Below, one piece after another: positions 2,055 to 12,913 of a DNA stretch of 27,860 nucleotides; positions within the stretch are counted from its first letter, which is position 1; each line of letters opens with the position of its first letter. Origin of the DNA: a virus. Taxonomy: Duplodnaviria; Heunggongvirae; Uroviricota; Caudoviricetes. The translations under genes were made by a program, and so were the position numbers. Under the pieces are notes generated by a model. That model did no database searches. It was not told the DNA's origin and was given only the letters and a program-made list of their open reading frames with translations. Location: the IMG/VR virus record IMGVR_UViG_2547132277_000001. One strand, 5' to 3'.

Positions 2055-3270
2055 CGATAATTCTCTTAATAAGCGCCCCACGTTTAAAAGAGCATTACGC
2101 AACATCAGTATGACCAGCATATTTATCACTATGATGCTGATCTGGTTGCTGCTTTCCGTGACCTCGGTGCTGACCCTGAAACAGTACGCGCAAAAAAACC
2201 TGGCACTGACAGCAGCAACAATGACTTACAGTCTGGAAGCAGCTGTCGTTTTTGCCGATGGCCCTGCAGCAACTGAAACACTGGCAGCGCTGGGCCAGCA
2301 AGGGCAATTTTCAACTGCAGAAGTACGTGATAAGCAGCAAAATATTCTGGCATCCTGGCATTACACCCGTAAGGATCCAGGCGATACTTTCAGTAATTTC
2401 ATAAGCCACTGGCTCTTCCCTGCCCCCATCATTCAGCCGATTCGTCACAATGGTGAAACCATTGGCGAAGTACGCTTAACCGCTCGCGACAGTTCAATCA
2501 GCCATTTTATCTGGTTTTCGCTCGCCGTACTGACCGGTTGTATTCTGCTGGCATCAGGCATCGCAATTACCCTCACCCGCCATTTGCACAATGGCCTGGT
2601 AGAAGCGCTGAAAAATATCACCGATGTCGTACATGATGTGCGTTCCAACCGCAATTTTTCCCGACGAGTTTCGGAAGAACGTATCGCTGAGTTTCACCGC
2701 TTCGCTCTCGACTTCAACAGTCTGCTGGATGAAATGGAAGAGTGGCAGCTTCGTTTACAGGCTAAAAATGCGCAGCTTCTACGTACCGCGCTACATGACC
2801 CATTAACCGGGCTGGCTAACCGCGCAGCGTTTCGTAGCGGCATCAACACGTTGATGAACAATTCCGATGCCCGAAAAACGTCGGCGTTACTATTTCTTGA
2901 TGGCGATAATTTCAAATACATCAATGATACCTGGGGTCATGCGACGGGCGATAGAGTCTTGATTGAAATCGCAAAACGGTTAGCTGAATTTGGCGGGCTG
3001 CGACATAAAGCATACCGCCTGGGCGGCGATGAATTCGCTATGGTGCTCTATGATGTACAGTCGGAATCTGAAGTGCAGCAGATATGTTCAGCACTGACAC
3101 AAATCTTTAATCTCCCGTTTGATCTTCATAATGGCCATCAGACCACCATGACATTAAGCATTGGTTACGCGATGACCATTGAGCACGCCTCTGCGGAAAA
3201 ATTACAAGAGCTTGCCGATCACAATATGTATCAGGCCAAACACCAGCGTGCCGAAAAGCTGGTGAGATAA
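2044..3270 (+). CDS. dgcN: diguanylate cyclase DgcN (YfiN): TM/periplasmic sensor, HAMP and GGDEF domains
   Basis: 408-aa [35 protein letters not shown]... with a C-terminal GGDEF signature ([11 protein letters not shown]), recognised as E. coli YfiN. Confidence 0.92.
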
Positions 3271-3285
3271 CAAGGATATATCGAT

Positions 3286-3768
3286 ATGATAAAGCACCTG
3301 GTAGCACCCCTGGTTTTCACCTCACTAATACTGACTGGCTGCCAGTCCCCTCAGGGAAAGTTTACTCCTGAGCAAGTCGCCGCTATGCAATCTTATGGAT
3401 TTACTGAATCCGCCGGCGACTGGTCGCTGGGCTTATCAGATGCCATTCTGTTCGCAAAAAATGACTACAAATTGCTCCCGGAAAGCCAGCAACAGATCCA
3501 AACCATGGCAGCTAAATTGGCCTCGACAGGGCTAACACATGCCCGTATGGATGGACACACCGATAACTATGGTGAAGACAGTTACAACGAAGGCTTATCA
3601 TTGAAACGGGCGAATGTCGTGGCCGATGCATGGGCTATGGGTGGACAAATTCCACGCAGCAATCTCACCACACAGGGTTTAGGAAAAAAATATCCCATAG
3701 CCAGTAACAAGACCGCCCAGGGCCGCGCCGAGAACCGCCGCGTCGCAGTGGTGATTACTACCCCTTAA
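3286..3768 (+). CDS. yfiB: OmpA-family outer-membrane lipoprotein YfiB
   Basis: 160-aa ORF with lipobox (LILTGCQ) and an OmpA-like C-terminal motif (NRRVAVVITTP). RBS AAGGA upstream of ATG 3286. Confidence 0.9.
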   Translation: MIKHLVAPLVFTSLILTGCQSPQGKFTPEQVAAMQSYGFTESAGDWSLGLSDAILFAKNDYKLLPESQQQIQTMAAKLASTGLTHARMDGHTDNYGEDSYNEGLSLKRANVVADAWAMGGQIPRSNLTTQGLGKKYPIASNKTAQGRAENRRVAVVITTP

Positions 3769-3939: not shown

Positions 3940-4989
3940 TTATGCAACCTCTGCCGCCACATTGTCGCCAACATACAGCGATAACGGATTGAGGGTTACA
4001 GCTTGTTCAAGGTGGTCAGGAGCAAAGTGCGCATACTTCATTGTTTCTCGAATATTGGCATGTCCGAGAATTTTCTGCAGCACCAGTATATTCCCTCCGT
4101 TCATCATAAAATGCGCACCAAAAGTATGACGCAAAACGTGCGTCTTCTGCCCTTCCGTCAATTCAATATTCGTTAGTTTGAGCATCTTTTTAAACTCCTG
4201 ATAGCAGGGTTTAAACATTCTGCCTTGACGTACGGACAACTCGTCGTACAGCCATTTAGGAATGGGAACTGTGCGATTCTTCTTACCTTTGGTTTTGGAG
4301 AACGTTAGTTTATATGGAGAAAGTTGAGGTCGGGTCAATCTCTCCGCTTCCCCCCATCGAGCGCCGGTTGCAAGGCACACCTTAACAATCATGGTGAGGT
4401 CTTCTTTGCCGTATTGCTCGCAGGCTCGAAACAGCTCCGGGAGCTGAGACAAAGTTAGCCAGGACATTTCTTTCTCAGCTTCTTTGAATACTCGGATCCC
4501 ATCAAGTGGATTGGGTAGGCTCCACTCCCCTAACCGGCGGAGCTCATTAAACACTGCTTCTAGGTATTGTTGTTCGCGATTGACGGTTATAGGTTTGGCG
4601 ATCCATTTCGAGGGGTCTTTATGATAACCATTGTCTATTTCACCACGTAATCGACGGTCACGATAATGAGCCCAGTCTTTCGCGGTAAGGCGAGATGCAA
4701 TCGGGTCGCCAAGTCCATTACATACGATTTGAAGCTTTGCAAACCTCGACTTACTGGCGACTAACGCTTGACCGTGCAAATTGTGCCAAAGCTGAATAAT
4801 CTCGCTTAAGCGTCGGCGGTCTTCTTTCTTGCCGAGCCACGGCTTATCTTCACTCTCGCTTTTGGTAAATGCTTCAAATGCCTCGGCCTCACCTTTGGTA
4901 TTGAATTGCCGACGTATACGCCGCCCTTCTCGACCATTTGGATAGAGTTCACACAACCATTTTCCACTTTTTTGTTTACTTACAGTCAT
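3940..4989 (-). CDS. int: P2-family tyrosine integrase
   Basis: 349-aa ORF. N-terminal RIRRQFNTKGEAEAFEAF and C-terminal GARWGEAERL ... HVLRHTFGAHFMMNGGNILVLQKILGHANIRETMKYAHFAPDHLEQAVTLNPL match the P2 Int pattern, including the catalytic R..H-x-x-R..Y region. Confidence 0.9.
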   Translation of the reverse strand: MTVSKQKSGKWLCELYPNGREGRRIRRQFNTKGEAEAFEAFTKSESEDKPWLGKKEDRRRLSEIIQLWHNLHGQALVASKSRFAKLQIVCNGLGDPIASRLTAKDWAHYRDRRLRGEIDNGYHKDPSKWIAKPITVNREQQYLEAVFNELRRLGEWSLPNPLDGIRVFKEAEKEMSWLTLSQLPELFRACEQYGKEDLTMIVKVCLATGARWGEAERLTRPQLSPYKLTFSKTKGKKNRTVPIPKWLYDELSVRQGRMFKPCYQEFKKMLKLTNIELTEGQKTHVLRHTFGAHFMMNGGNILVLQKILGHANIRETMKYAHFAPDHLEQAVTLNPLSLYVGDNVAAEVA

Positions 4990-5013: not shown

Positions 5014-5352
5014 TTAATTACAAAGGGCTGTAGCGGCATCAATCACCGGTGAAATTGAAATTTTAACGCCGTCATACTCAGGGTCATCCTTCCATACGTC
5101 ATCTAAGTTAGACCCCTCCAGCTTTCCTGATTTAACAGCATCTACCGCCATGCCATTCAGAGGATATCTATCATCAGTTTTGATGTCATACACAAAAGCA
5201 TAAGCACGGTTAACACATGATACCTTTGCCTTTTCAAAGGTTAGAGGCCACTTGTCACCATATGCAGCGCCGTCTATCTCTTTAAACTTCTCAGCGGCTA
5301 TGGCTGAGGAAGAAAGTGCAATGCAGACTATCGCAAATATAAACTTTTTCAT
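5014..5352 (-). CDS. small secreted protein with cleavable signal peptide (moron between int and repressor); family uncertain
   Basis: AGGAG RBS. MKKFIFAIVCIALSSSAIA|AEK looks like a Sec signal peptide with an AXA cleavage site. Two Cys in the mature part. GC content is visibly lower than the flanking prophage genes. Confidence 0.6.
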   Translation of the reverse strand: MKKFIFAIVCIALSSSAIAAEKFKEIDGAAYGDKWPLTFEKAKVSCVNRAYAFVYDIKTDDRYPLNGMAVDAVKSGKLEGSNLDDVWKDDPEYDGVKISISPVIDAATALCN

Positions 5353-5361
5353 TACTGCTCC

Positions 5362-6207
5362 TTAAACATGCTTTTCCAAAGTAAAAATAACCGCACCTGA
5401 TGGTGTGATATCTGAAATATTACATTCAAACTCAGCAGACTTATTTGATAACCTGACCTTTCCGCCTGGCAACCTGATTACGTCAAAAACATCGAGTGCA
5501 CCATCAATACCAATAAGCCAGCGACCATTTCCTATCTTCGAGTTAGAACTATCAACAAGCCAAGATGTGCTCACACCATCAATAAACACTAAATCATCAG
5601 TATTTGATGGAACCATAGATATATCAGGAGTCCAGCGTCCGATATCTTTGAGTTCGCCCGCCTCGAGGCGGCACTTTCTAATCGTTAAAGCATTTGCCGG
5701 TTCACCATCATTACTGTTACGCATCTGGCCTTTTCCGGTTGATAACCATTCTAACGATACGCCAGTATCAAGGGCGCAAGTGACAACCACGTCACCGGGG
5801 AAAAAATCGCGTCTAACCCAAGTGCTTATAGTGCCGGAAGATATACCTAATAAATCTCCAAGCTCTTTTTGCAGAGTAAAACCATACGCATCGAGAATCC
5901 GACGCAGAACCGCCCTCCCTCCATTTGCCATGATTTCATCATAGAGTTGCTTACCTTTAAGCTTAGTTTTCACCACTTCAAATCTTGCATTTGCAAGCTC
6001 ACCATTAATTAGCCATCGCAGGTCAGCTCCAGTATCAAGAGCACACTCAACGAAAACGTTGCTAGGGATTACGTTTCTAGCAAGCCAGCTACTCACGTTG
6101 TTTGCATGTATGCCAAGCCTTTCGGCTAGTTCCTTTTGCTGCTTAAAGCCGTATGCAGAAAGGACACGTTCCAATGCGGCAGACGCATTAACATCATTTT
6201 TAGACAT
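5362..6207 (-). CDS. cI: CI-type prophage repressor with two tandem HTH DNA-binding domains and a C-terminal domain
   Basis: Start taken at ATG 6207 (MSKNDVNAS...). Two homologous repeats (ERVLSAYGFKQQKELAERLGI...VECALDTGADLRWL and RRILDAYGFTLQKELGDLLGI...VTCALDTGVSLEWL) are followed by a ~110-aa C-terminal domain. Position between int and the divergent early operon is as expected for a repressor. The ORF track extends the frame to 6396 but the first ATG with the conserved N-terminus is at 6207. Confidence 0.7.
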   Translation of the reverse strand: MSKNDVNASAALERVLSAYGFKQQKELAERLGIHANNVSSWLARNVIPSNVFVECALDTGADLRWLINGELANARFEVVKTKLKGKQLYDEIMANGGRAVLRRILDAYGFTLQKELGDLLGISSGTISTWVRRDFFPGDVVVTCALDTGVSLEWLSTGKGQMRNSNDGEPANALTIRKCRLEAGELKDIGRWTPDISMVPSNTDDLVFIDGVSTSWLVDSSNSKIGNGRWLIGIDGALDVFDVIRLPGGKVRLSNKSAEFECNISDITPSGAVIFTLEKHV

Positions 6208-6320
6208 ATGACACCAACAAGAATTTTGTTTACAACCAAAATTTAGCGATCTATATTGGTGCTCATCGACCAAGATGCACACCACTGCACTACATTTCAA
6301 ACAACAGGAGATAATGCGAT
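6208..6320. promoter_or_regulatory. lysis/lysogeny switch region between cI and the early lytic operon
   Basis: 113-bp non-coding gap between the divergently oriented repressor and the Apl-like gene. Promoters and operators are expected here by analogy with P2/186. No operator was defined. Confidence 0.4.
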
Positions 6321-6692
6321 ATGTCAGATGCAAAATCAATCTCGACGCACGACTCGCAAAACTCACAAAATCAAACTGTGCTGCTAGATCCAACACAGTT
6401 TGATGCCATCGTTACCGCCATGCTGCCAGCTCTACAGACAATGATTCGCTCCGCTATGTCAGACACGATGACTGTGAAAGACTTCGCCGCTACTCGCGGT
6501 GTTAGCGAGCGTCTGGTCTGGCAATGGCTCGATGAGGGAGTCCTTCTCAAAGCTCCGACCAAAGACTTTTCCAACAAAGAGGAAGCTGCTAAACGAAGCC
6601 GAACCCTCGTAAATGTAAAAGCATGGCGCGATAAGCTGACTCAACAAGCGATTGATTGTCGCTACATCGACCAGCGCACCGCTCTCAACTGA
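6321..6692 (+). CDS. Apl/Cox-like excisionase-type HTH regulator, first gene of the early rightward operon
   Basis: AGGAG RBS ~10 nt upstream. The C-terminal half has an AlpA/excisionase-like HTH (MTVKDFAATRGVSERLVWQWLDEG). Confidence 0.55.
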   Translation: MSDAKSISTHDSQNSQNQTVLLDPTQFDAIVTAMLPALQTMIRSAMSDTMTVKDFAATRGVSERLVWQWLDEGVLLKAPTKDFSNKEEAAKRSRTLVNVKAWRDKLTQQAIDCRYIDQRTALN

Positions 6693-6724
6693 ATTTGATT
6701 ATGCAAGTTAGAGGGAATTTAACC

Positions 6725-7234
6725 ATGTTTGATTTTCAGGTTTCCAAACATCCCCACTATGACGAAGCATGCCGCATTTTCGCACAGCGTCACAACATGG
6801 CGAAGCTGGCCGAGCGTGCAGGTATGAACGTTCAAACGTTACGTAACAAGCTCAACCCGGAACAGCCTCACCAGTTCACGCCGCCTGAATTGTGGCTGCT
6901 GACTGACCTGACCGAAGACTCAACCCTCATTGATGGTTTTTTAGCGCAGATTCACTGCCTACCATGCGTGCCGGTTAATGAGTTGGCTAAAGACAAATTG
7001 CAGTCTTATGTCATGCGCGCAATGCGTGAACTCGGCGAACTGGCGAGCGGCGCGGTATCTGATGAACGTCTGACCATTGCCCGTAAGCACAACATGATTG
7101 AAAGCGTTAACTCCGGCATTCGCATGTTGTCATTGTCGGCTCTGGCGCTGCATGCACGTCTGCAGACTAATCCAGCTATGTCGAGCGTGGTCGATACCAT
7201 GAGCGGTATTGGCGCATCGTTTGGTCTGATTTGA
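6725..7234 (+). CDS. cII: phage CII-like regulatory protein (186 CII family)
   Basis: GAGGGA RBS then ATG 6725, giving 169 aa (MFDFQVSKHPHYDEACRIFAQRHNMAKLAERAGMNVQTLRNKLNPEQP...). HTH near the N-terminus. Position after the apl-like gene matches 186 early-region order. Confidence 0.8.
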   Translation: MFDFQVSKHPHYDEACRIFAQRHNMAKLAERAGMNVQTLRNKLNPEQPHQFTPPELWLLTDLTEDSTLIDGFLAQIHCLPCVPVNELAKDKLQSYVMRAMRELGELASGAVSDERLTIARKHNMIESVNSGIRMLSLSALALHARLQTNPAMSSVVDTMSGIGASFGLI

Positions 7235-10544: not shown

Positions 10545-10577
10545 TGCCAATACGTGCTACTGTATAAATATACAGTA
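10545..10577 (+). promoter_or_regulatory. LexA-repressed (SOS) promoter: -35 TTGCCA, -10 TATACA, overlapping LexA box
   Basis: TACTGTATAAATATACAGTA (10558-10577) is a perfect CTGT-N8-ACAG SOS box overlapping a sigma70-like promoter directly upstream of ORF 10597. Confidence 0.75.
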
Positions 10578-10596
10578 ACCCTGTGGGAGGGATTTC

Positions 10597-10779
10597 ATGG
10601 TTGGCGAACATTTCAGCCGAACGCAGCAAAAGTGGGCTTGTGTGCAATTTATTGCCGAGGTATCTCTGATTGCAAACTGCAAGCCATCAGACTTAAAGCT
10701 CGCGCTCACTCTCATTGCAGACCTAGCAAACAGCGAGAATAACGAAACCGAAGATGATAATTTTTATAAGGCTGATTAG
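10597..10779 (+). CDS. SOS-controlled small protein, candidate Tum-like antirepressor N-terminal module
   Basis: GGGAGG RBS. 60-aa ORF immediately downstream of the LexA box. In 186 the LexA-controlled gene at this position is the tum antirepressor. Confidence 0.5.
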   Translation: MVGEHFSRTQQKWACVQFIAEVSLIANCKPSDLKLALTLIADLANSENNETEDDNFYKAD

Positions 10780-10782
10780 ATT

Positions 10783-11016
10783 ATGAGAATCAATATCACG
10801 TTGGATAAAGAGCAAAAAATTAGTCAGGCAACATTGGATGCACTTGAGGCTGAACTGTACCGCAATCTTCAACCTATTTACCCAAAGACTGCTATCCGAA
10901 TTCGCAAGGGCTCCGCTAATGGCGTTGAACTAAGCGGTTTGAAACTGGACGAAGATAAAAAACGAGTAATGGAAATCATGCAGCAGGTATGGGAGGACGA
11001 TAGCTGGCTGCATTAA
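10783..11016 (+). CDS. DinI-family protein
   Basis: MRINITLDKEQKISQATLDALEAELYRNLQPIYP...VMEIMQQVWEDDSWLH aligns by eye with E. coli DinI (MRIEVTIAKT...ALAGELSRRIQ...ISEILQETWE). Confidence 0.85.
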   Translation: MRINITLDKEQKISQATLDALEAELYRNLQPIYPKTAIRIRKGSANGVELSGLKLDEDKKRVMEIMQQVWEDDSWLH

Positions 11017-11908: not shown

Positions 11909-12913
11909 CTAATTTACATGTATGTAGAGTTCACCGTCGCCAGACCAATCGGGACACTCTAAAACAAGCCCAAACTGCTTGAATATTTCATCAATGATTA
12001 TTGTTATCTCCCGAAAATCACCAAAACCTGTAATGTGCTGGTCATTAAACTTCCCATAAAGATTCTGAAAAGCAATGCCTAATTCTGATAATTGATATCT
12101 TATCTTTGAGTTGGATAGTGTAAGGGATAGCTTTGGATCGTATTCTTTAATATTGATGTTTAGAGAATGGACATAACCCATCGCATAAGCATAAGAGTTG
12201 ATGATTAGCCTGATACGTTTTTTTACTTCAAGATACATGTCATTCAGAGAAAGATTACCGTACTTATAACCCCAGATGAGTTTTTCAATCTCGTCAGATA
12301 CTTCATTTACAACAGTGTCAAGATTCTCTAAAAATAAATCGATAGTTTCTTGAGGGGCAGACCCCGAAGACATGTAATTAGCGAGATATTCAGACCATGC
12401 ACGCGTGGCTGAGATAAGAAGCGCGCTACCATACTCGTTGACTGTAAAGTTTTGGGCTAAGCATGTTAGTAAGTTTTTTCATGTACGTGCACTAATTCAT
12501 GGTGAATGCGATGGATGACTGCGAGGTATCCTTCTTCTTTCAGTTTTAAGAAGCTACCATCATTGAAAAGCTCAACAAAAAAAATCAATCGATAGCACAA
12601 GGGTATATTCTTCATATAGCCCATCATTGCCAATTTTTGTTACTAACTGCCCGACGGCTGCGCCCTGTTTGCTATTGGTAAATGAACTAGGGGATTTGTG
12701 TTGGTAAGAGGATGTTACCTTTTGAAGAGCTTCACTGAAGTTATAGGAAACAATCACGCATTTTAATTTGGAGATATCAAGATTGAGATTCTTTGTTAAA
12801 GCTCGGATAGCTTCTAGTGTGAAATTACCGATATTATTTGCTTCTTGCTCAGTAGCGAAACCTTCGAGGGTTATTTTAAAATCAGTTTCCAAAATATTAA
12901 TCTCCGCGCCCAT
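11909..12913 (-). pseudogene. AT-rich cargo gene of unknown function, apparently one ~325-aa ORF interrupted by two frameshifts at homopolymer tracts
   Basis: Minus-strand ORFs 12913-12572 and 12373-11909 are in the same frame. The 198-bp gap between them is open in the -1 frame (FFVELFNDGSFLKLKEEGYLAVIHRIHHELVHVHEKTY) and then again in the original frame (KNLLTCLAQNFTVNEYGSALLISATRAWSEYLANYM-). The frame switches coincide with a T8 run (plus 12577-12584) and an A6 run (plus 12474-12479). Confidence 0.5.

Follow-up and report, generated by a model that had tools for sequence, protein, structure and literature searches.

The gene at positions 5362–6207 (minus strand, ATG at 6207; 281 amino acids plus stop) of IMG/VR record IMGVR_UViG_2547132277_000001, a stretch of 27,860 nucleotides called the window below, encodes an immunity repressor, the CI protein of an Eganvirus prophage (186/PSP3-like) carried by Escherichia coli. 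It has the PSP3-type form, with two helix-turn-helix (HTH) heads, here N-terminal domains 1 and 2 (NTD1 and NTD2), followed by one C-terminal domain (CTD). From sequence comparisons it appears rather probable that these domains divide the labour, NTD1 repressing the promoter pR and setting immunity, NTD2 reading conserved FL-like, FR-like and pB sites, and the CTD serving for oligomerisation. The CI of phage 186 is a model system for DNA wrapping, looping and transcriptional interference, in which a heptamer-of-dimers wheel wraps and loops DNA and one head puzzlingly reads two unrelated sequences. A more tentative step, which we hold to be possible but short of probable, is that duplication of the head split this 186-type dual specificity, so that the fast-evolving outer head alone sets pR immunity and the frozen inner head reads FL, FR and pB and is probably the handle for the antirepressor TumA. 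The two-head PSP3-type subgroup is itself already known; the division of labour proposed between its heads is new.

In the proposed mechanism, the CTD would assemble dimers and probably a higher-order, 186-like oligomer with looping. Pairs of NTD1 heads would bind type-specific operators over the −35 box and spacer of pR (6208–6262) and thereby confer immunity specificity, and pairs of NTD2 heads would bind a conserved palindrome, AACTTGCA-WW-TGCAAGTT, at the FL-like, FR-like and pB sites. TumA, controlled by LexA and nearly identical across the types compared, would presumably act on the conserved NTD2/CTD part.

A repressor with two heads and one C-terminal domain

The initial annotation, made from the letters alone, had proposed a prophage repressor with two tandem HTH domains and a single C-terminal domain, and this description holds; its coordinates and its consensus for the repeat are correct on translation and alignment. 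In a Pfam search CI matches PF07022 (Phage_CI_repr) in two places (total E 1.5e-47), with the best stretch at residues 99–163 and the other copy N-terminal at ~10–70, and PF16452 (Phage_CI_C) once, at residues 176–269 (E 4.6e-19). When residues 1–85 are compared with residues 86–281 by BLASTP, 31 of 61 positions are identical (51%, E 3e-22), so that the repeat is far beyond chance. Its identity as the immunity repressor of the prophage is supported. The DNA of the gene is 100% identical to that of the E. coli strain I4 chromosome, whose annotation names the product ‘phage repressor protein CI’. Peptidase_S24 (PF00717) does not appear in the list of 17 matched Pfam families.

Both heads are predicted as five-helix bundles with the same helix pattern, at residues 8–68 and 97–157, in an AlphaFold2 monomer model built on an 80-sequence alignment (mean pLDDT 85.7; pTM 0.43). 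The helices span residues 8–19, 24–31, 35–44, 49–59 and 63–68 in NTD1 (pLDDT ~90), and 97–108, 113–120, 124–132, 138–148 and 152–157 in NTD2. The second repeat, on which the initial annotation could have failed, is thus predicted to fold like the first. In Foldseek the model ranks closest to 186 CI (2FJR, E 9e-17) and to the structure of the 186 CTD (2FKD, TMt 0.90, rmsd 1.6), and residues 10–182 of 2FJR align in sequence to residues 100–274 of CI at about 33% identity. NTD2 and the CTD together therefore make up the equivalent of an entire 186-type CI, to which NTD1 adds a further head at the N-terminus.

On the minus strand of the window, the variable NTD1 (residues 8–70; recognition helix HANNVSSWLARN) lies at 5998–6186. 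It is followed by an inter-head linker (residues 71–96; 5920–5997), disordered in the model at residues 72–80 and then forming a conserved LKGKxLYDEI helix, by the near-invariant NTD2 (residues 97–160; 5728–5919; recognition helix SSGTISTWVRRD), the counterpart of the single 186 head, and by the C-terminal oligomerisation domain (residues 176–281; 5365–5682), which the model gives as beta-rich at 176–278. This succession of NTD1, LKGKxLYDEI linker, NTD2 helix and CTD is the PSP3-type layout; CI fits the 186-type family on both PF07022 and PF16452 and departs from its one-head archetype, 186 CI (192 amino acids).

Unequal heads and two classes of candidate operators

The two heads have evolved very unequally. 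Over 120 homologues the mean column entropy is 0.88 in NTD1, 0.22 in NTD2 and 0.73 in the CTD. The recognition helix of NTD2 reads ISSGTISTWVRRD(F) in 100 of 119 homologues; that of NTD1 comes in 15 variants and at least six discrete types, namely type I (HANNVSSWLARN; the window and phage SI22), type II (AKHSVSGWVQRD; phages PSP3 and vB_EcoM-613R3, hereafter 613R3), type III (YANNISSWLARD), type IV (PSNSVSTWVQRN; phage Midge), type V (PANNISSWIQRE) and type VI (AANNISGWTKRG). Between the window and PSP3, Midge or the related locus L007, NTD2 codons differ by 3–5 nonsynonymous and 27–34 synonymous changes (10–13 nonsynonymous against the more distant loci L009 and L011), and NTD1 codons by 20–33 nonsynonymous versus about 20 synonymous changes; at the protein level the rate of change in NTD1 is about 6 times that in NTD2. 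Divergence of cI is old and extends over the whole gene (55–85% DNA identity between the window and 613R3), and silent changes dominate in NTD2, which argues for strong purifying selection rather than recent recombination or homogenisation. That NTD1 and pR form a recently swapped recombination cassette was considered and rejected, as cI is 55–85% identical throughout and the right boundary alone (about 6263–6273) is sharp.

The DNA at pR follows the type of NTD1. The pR candidate of the window (TTTACA, 17 nt, TATATT; 6229–6257, plus strand) agrees with the consensus at 10 of 12 positions, and its distance from the cI start, 22 bp, corresponds to that in 186. In a comparison of eight loci covering six NTD1 types, the 55 bp between the cI start and the pR −10 box (6208–6262) are distinct for each NTD1 type and common within a type whatever the right-hand flank. 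To the right of about 6263, an alignment of four related phage genomes shows almost no differences, while the more distant contigs L007, L009 and L011 diverge somewhat. Within this stretch, ~100 bp running from the pR −10 box into the next open reading frame (ORF), that of the Apl analogue (6263–6360), are fully conserved (100% identity) among five phages, although their cI genes share 67–92% identity. The variants of the right-hand flank, which unite the window, 613R3 and Midge on one side and SI22 and PSP3 on the other, assort independently of cI type, whereas the pR zone always pairs with it, joining the window to SI22 and PSP3 to 613R3 despite the opposite grouping of their flanks. Spacer palindromes, too, resemble each other where the NTD1 helices do: AATCGCATTTGCGATT belongs to type V, and AGTCGCATTTTGCGATC to a two-head CI from Serratia whose helix is APNNISSWQQRGS. 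In types III and IV, paired pR sites stand 21 bp apart, and a two-turn (21 bp) spacing is known for the pR operators of 186 (PMC3675496). For type I, the operator candidates are the arms AATTTTG (6222–6228) and CAAAATT (6237–6243) and the element AACAAGAATTTTGTT (6216–6230); a search by exact 8-mers for type-specific distal copies of the pR zone returned none.

An inequality of this kind could also arise if NTD2, the positional counterpart of the functional 186 head, were the sole DNA binder and NTD1 a degenerate or regulatory HTH-like module (for instance a decoy, or a contact for the Apl analogue, the antirepressor or RNA polymerase) under relaxed or arms-race selection, to which its faster change at the protein level would be suited. 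NTD1, however, keeps the full PF07022 signature, a canonical HTH with its turn glycine and a confidently predicted five-helix fold, and it occurs in discrete conserved types rather than decaying. The pR DNA tracks these types independently of the right-hand flank, and since no NTD2-type motif is found within 4 mismatches in the pR zone of types I–VI, pR would be left with no repressor. NTD2 as the only reading head is accordingly considered very unlikely.

The division of labour gives NTD2 a different target, indicated by single-head relatives. CIs from Rahnella-type, Chimaeribacter and Yersinia prophages, whose only head matches NTD2 at 80% identity and shares its recognition helix, are accompanied by predicted operators of the AACTTGCAAATGCAAGTT type in the pR spacer. 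Their promoters read TTGACA-ACTTGCAAATGCAAGTT-TAGATT (a perfect 18-mer), TTGACA-GCTTGCAAAGTCAAGAT-TAGAGT and TTGACG-ACTTGCAAATTTAAGAT-TAGATT, the palindrome lying exactly in the spacer between −35 and −10 in all three. At the Rahnella-type locus neither a cII nor an Apl-analogue gene was called, which leaves CI as the shared factor.

In the window, the motif AACTTGCANNTGCAAGTT occurs twice at ≤3 mismatches versus 0.23 matches expected, and 0 of 100 shuffles reach two. One match is the FL-like site ATCTTGCATTTGCAAGCT (core TTGCATTTGCAA; 5982–5999), inside the cI codons for G-E-L-A-N-A, and the other is the FR-like site AATTTGATTATGCAAGTT (6692–6709), between the stop codon of the Apl-analogue gene and the start of cII; both are predicted operators. 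The FL-like site is found at the same position with ≤3 mismatches in SI22, PSP3, 613R3, Midge and L007/L008 and with 4 mismatches in L011, while in L009 the core is present with one mismatch and was missed by the 18-mer scan. The FR-like site likewise keeps its position (+484 to +493) in SI22, PSP3, 613R3, Midge, L007/L008 and L009, but the scan did not detect it in L011. In SI22, PSP3 and Midge, the three loci that extend to pB, the motif occurs once more, over the −35 box of the ogr/B-like late-activator gene. In the prophage of the window pB lies at the far end, and the identical prophage of E. coli I4 has GATTTGCAAATGCAATTT there, with TATTAT after it. Where the protein sequence at the FL position differs, as in Midge and in type VI (L011), the DNA site is kept 9–12 nt away, which argues for selection on DNA and not on the peptide. 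The motif is absent from the 186 locus, and the locus of Klebsiella phage 4LV2017 has one 4-mismatch match, far from cI. The motifs at the FL, FR and pB positions are thus statistically unusual and stand, as predicted sites, at places equivalent to CI sites of 186, where the U32222 annotation places the pR operators in one class and FL, FR and pB in another (ATTCAC-N5-GTGAAT).

The evidence therefore points to two classes of sites, type-specific DNA at pR and a conserved palindrome lying outside 6208–6320. This bears on the claim of the initial annotation that two heads per monomer would change operator geometry, to be sought as altered half-site spacing in 6208–6320 and near pR and pL. No sign of such a spacing was seen within 6208–6320, the evidence pointing to separate site classes instead. 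The suggestion that the architecture relates to immunity specificity is supported, at the sequence level, by the co-variation of NTD1 type and pR DNA.

A change of geometry would be expected if the protein acted as a single-chain pseudo-dimer, the two heads of one subunit reading side by side a composite, asymmetric operator with one constant and one variable half-site. The linker of ~25 amino acids, partly disordered, would permit such a placement; the part of the pR spacer near the −10 box (CGATCTA, CGATTTA) is alike across types and its upstream part varies; and the FL and FR sites of type V resemble hybrid half-sites. Yet the conserved sites (FL, pB and, in the single-head relatives, pR) each repeat one type of half-site in a symmetric palindrome, which is what two identical heads should read, the NTD2-type motif is missing at ≤4 mismatches from the pR zone in types I–VI, and the conserved CGATCTA overlaps both the −10 box and the recombination junction and is explained without CI. 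This arrangement is judged improbable.

The constancy of NTD2 must also be considered in the light of induction. A complete SOS-induction module is recognised by sequence at 10560–11016: the only LexA box of the window (CTGTATAAATATACAG; 10560–10575, plus strand), a tumA-like antirepressor gene (10597–10779, plus strand; 60 amino acids), annotated TumA in PSP3, and a dinI-like gene (10783–11016, plus strand; PF06183, E 7e-24) that forms the second half of a split tum. At the sequence level, SOS induction through a LexA-controlled antirepressor of the Tum type is thus provided for, in a split form of the 186 tum; the split arrangement and the role of TumA are reported for PSP3, and 186 Tum binds CI and prevents operator binding (PMC3121763). 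TumA is 98–100% identical in all 10 phage records found by tblastn in the phage collection, all PSP3-like and including PSP3, 613R3, SI22, SW9, Midge, SEN1 and RCIP0057; phages with NTD1 of types I, II and IV are among them, the typing of cI having covered carriers other than SEN1 and RCIP0057. Being near-identical across NTD1 types, TumA must act on a conserved part of CI, presumably NTD2/CTD, and its action may be a second reason for the constancy of NTD2.

Taken further, NTD2 could be invariant mainly as a docking surface for TumA, with the TTGCA-WW-TGCAA sites bound by another factor or incidental. The near-identity of TumA across types and the binding of CI by 186 Tum (PMC3121763) speak for docking, but docking leaves unexplained the motif in the pR spacer of the three single-head relatives with the NTD2 helix, its retention at three 186-equivalent positions and the displacement of the FL site upon coding change. 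Docking and operator reading by NTD2 are compatible, and only the part that makes the sites incidental is disfavoured; as a whole this explanation seems unlikely.

Several points weigh against the proposed assignment of heads to sites. The relative orientation of the CI domains is undefined in the model, as indicated by the pTM of 0.43, and the heads are not fixed to each other. A palindrome scan of the pR zones gave no single unambiguous operator pair for type I, and because NTD1 and the pR DNA are adjacent, their co-variation could partly reflect linkage. In one Serratia two-head locus an NTD2-like 18-mer (3 mismatches) lies at the cI start and pR −35 box, and pR may therefore not be free of NTD2 sites in every case. 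Only one half of the FR-like site is good (3 mismatches), in type V both FL and FR appear to mix two half-site types that differ by one base, and TumA docking could be the cause of the invariance of NTD2 instead.

Relatives, origins and prophage context

The same two-head CI is found in the isolated phages SI22 (92% identity), PSP3 (73%) and Midge (67%), by DNA also in 613R3, and the PSP3 type occurs in phage SW9 and many Enterobacterales prophages. The 120 protein clusters closest to CI all measure 267–289 amino acids and come from many Enterobacterales. An exhaustive search of 50%-identity representatives gave 414 matches; among the 150 listed, those of ≥170 amino acids comprise 68 with one head and 23 with two. 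Single-head CIs of 185–215 amino acids, which form the majority of these representatives, always align to residues 95–280 of the query. The two-head arrangement as the standard of the family was therefore rejected, in keeping with the initial annotation, which had set it apart from the classical form; it is neither unique nor the family standard. The one published statement that the literature searches brought up ascribes the greater length of PSP3 CI, compared with 186 CI, to ‘a longer C-terminal domain’ (PMC3448106). These searches yielded no account of a head duplication, and the PSP3-type two-head architecture, present in databases, has apparently gone unrecognised in the literature as a duplication.

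A second large two-head clade, of about 310 amino acids (290–330; proteins P0271–P0320), is typified by phage 4LV2017, whose cI lies at 2417–3358 of locus L005. Head-versus-head identity is 0.50 within the PSP3 clade and 0.60 within the 4LV2017 clade, against 0.37–0.46 between clades. As heads are more alike within than across clades, the family must have acquired the architecture on at least two occasions, or homogenised it twice, and the 4LV2017 clade appears, from these comparisons, to have duplicated or fused its heads independently. The two heads of the 4LV2017 type find their counterparts, at about 85% identity, in two different groups of single-head CIs (the 207- and 196-amino-acid types), which suggests fusion of two existing specificities rather than duplication in place.

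Other arrangements of these heads were noticed. In an ENA metagenome contig (NODE_824; locus L014, 2713–3570), an NTD1-like PF07022 ORF of 69 amino acids is followed by TGA and TAA in frame and then by a complete 189-amino-acid single-head CI with its own ATG; this split repressor may preserve an ancestral state with two genes, may have a pseudogenised linker, or may be an artefact of sequencing. Two longer proteins, P0224 (525 amino acids) and P0252 (1170 amino acids), show 7 and 5 stretches matching the repressor HTH region and are possibly multi-copy PF07022-like arrays; a stricter local profile retains one copy in P0224 and none in P0252.

The window is a segment of an E. coli chromosome, 100% identical to strain I4 and matched in 67 of 5426 complete E. 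coli genomes. A leftward lysogenic operon, cI–(x)–int, faces a rightward lytic operon with an apl-like gene and cII, as in the 186-type switch. The leftward operon ends with int (3940–4989, minus strand), preceded by a DUF2511/YebY-like gene (5014–5352, minus strand) between cI and int; this gene encodes a signal-peptide-like N-terminus, is present in PSP3, SI22 and Midge and absent in 186, and from its position would be co-expressed with the repressor from the prophage. The first gene of the lytic operon (6321–6692, plus strand; 123 amino acids) is the Apl/Cox analogue, assigned by phrog_3554 (E 3e-75) and a weak Cox-like match to phrog_575 at residues 48–110; it matched no Pfam family and carries an N-terminal extension of 47 amino acids. 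It is followed by cII (6725–7234, plus strand; 169 amino acids; PF06892, E 3e-46) and, in the prophage gene list, by fil, a DUF5347 gene and replication gene A.

A weak pL candidate (TTGATT, 17 nt, CATTAT; 6311–6339, minus strand) was picked by eye from analogy with pL of 186. A half-site-like repeat, GCAAAATCAA, overlaps it at 6330–6339 and recurs at 6365–6374. As a window-wide motif it was rejected (7 matches versus 3.8 expected, thus not enriched), and, its matches clustering at 6330–6704, it is retained only as possible weak half-sites over pL; GCAAAAT-type half-sites at 6330–6374 might also be read by NTD2. Nearby, TGCAC-N5-TGCAC repeats with 10-bp periodicity (6276–6290) are plausible sites for the Apl analogue, by analogy with the Apl sites of 186 between pR and pL. 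Within the Apl-analogue ORF, an inverted repeat (ATCAAACTGTGCTG / CAACACAGTTTGAT; 6370–6404) has 14-nt arms, 93% complementary, and a 7-nt gap; it is shared by the window and 613R3, is missing from SI22 and PSP3, and was rejected as a CI operator since it is altered in SI22, which has the CI type of the window. Farther along, between the tum/dinI region and the portal gene, two adjacent ORFs at 11909–12373 and 12572–12913 (both minus strand; 154 and 113 amino acids) match the C- and N-terminal halves of phrog_11743 (323 amino acids) and look like a split or disrupted cargo gene.

Comparison with known repressors and consequences for immunity

The window shares with 186 the two domain families of CI and the gene neighbourhood (int, cI, a divergent apl-like gene, cII, fil), NTD2 and the CTD being collinear with the whole 186 protein. 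The operator layout of 186, a main zone at pR and accessory sites within cI, in the gap from apl to cII and at the promoter of the late activator, is matched in position by the predicted sites of this prophage, and both systems have a LexA-controlled antirepressor of the Tum type. They differ in that the Apl analogue is not homologous to 186 Apl, that a single tum in 186 stands against tumA and dinI here, and that the 186 operators, ATTCAC-N5-GTGAAT and TCTCAATTGGGAGA, are unrelated to the predicted operators of the window. Most of all, 186 CI has one head for two site classes, binding of two distinct sequences by its single HTH having been reported (Shearwin et al. 2002, as cited in PMC3675496), whereas the CI of the window has two heads between which the classes are apparently split, as predicted from the site distribution.

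PSP3 CI (NP_958086) and its counterparts in SI22, SW9, Midge and 613R3 have the same two-head architecture, NTD2, CTD and TumA (67–92% identity). The CI of the window is the type I, SI22-like member of this group, within which the NTD1 recognition helix and the pR DNA differ between the window and SI22, PSP3 and 613R3, and Midge. The 4LV2017-type CI (313 amino acids) also combines two PF07022 heads with PF16452, but is about 32% identical to that of the window and its heads show a weak asymmetry of conservation (entropy 0.74 versus 0.63). Lambda CI and LexA have the same role and an N-terminal HTH with a beta-rich C-terminal domain (distant fold similarity, Foldseek E 3e-6 to 1e-4); they possess one head per chain and an S24 domain with RecA-stimulated cleavage, in contrast to the CI of the window, for which the missing Peptidase_S24 match and the tumA module suggest induction by an antirepressor.

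If the division of labour is true, a phage would change its immunity type through one head and one operator zone, leaving three distant sites and the induction circuit untouched, and this would explain how immunity types diversify around constant induction and late-gene circuits. Mutating one head at a time would separate repression of pR from looping and late-gene control, and pairs of NTD1 and operator on a common scaffold could serve synthetic biology as orthogonal parts. For the prophages themselves, the CI of any type would repress pB of heteroimmune relatives, a resident prophage thus acting on their late-activator promoter, and partial cross-repression is predicted among the heteroimmune prophages common in the genomes of E. 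coli, Klebsiella, Enterobacter and Salmonella.

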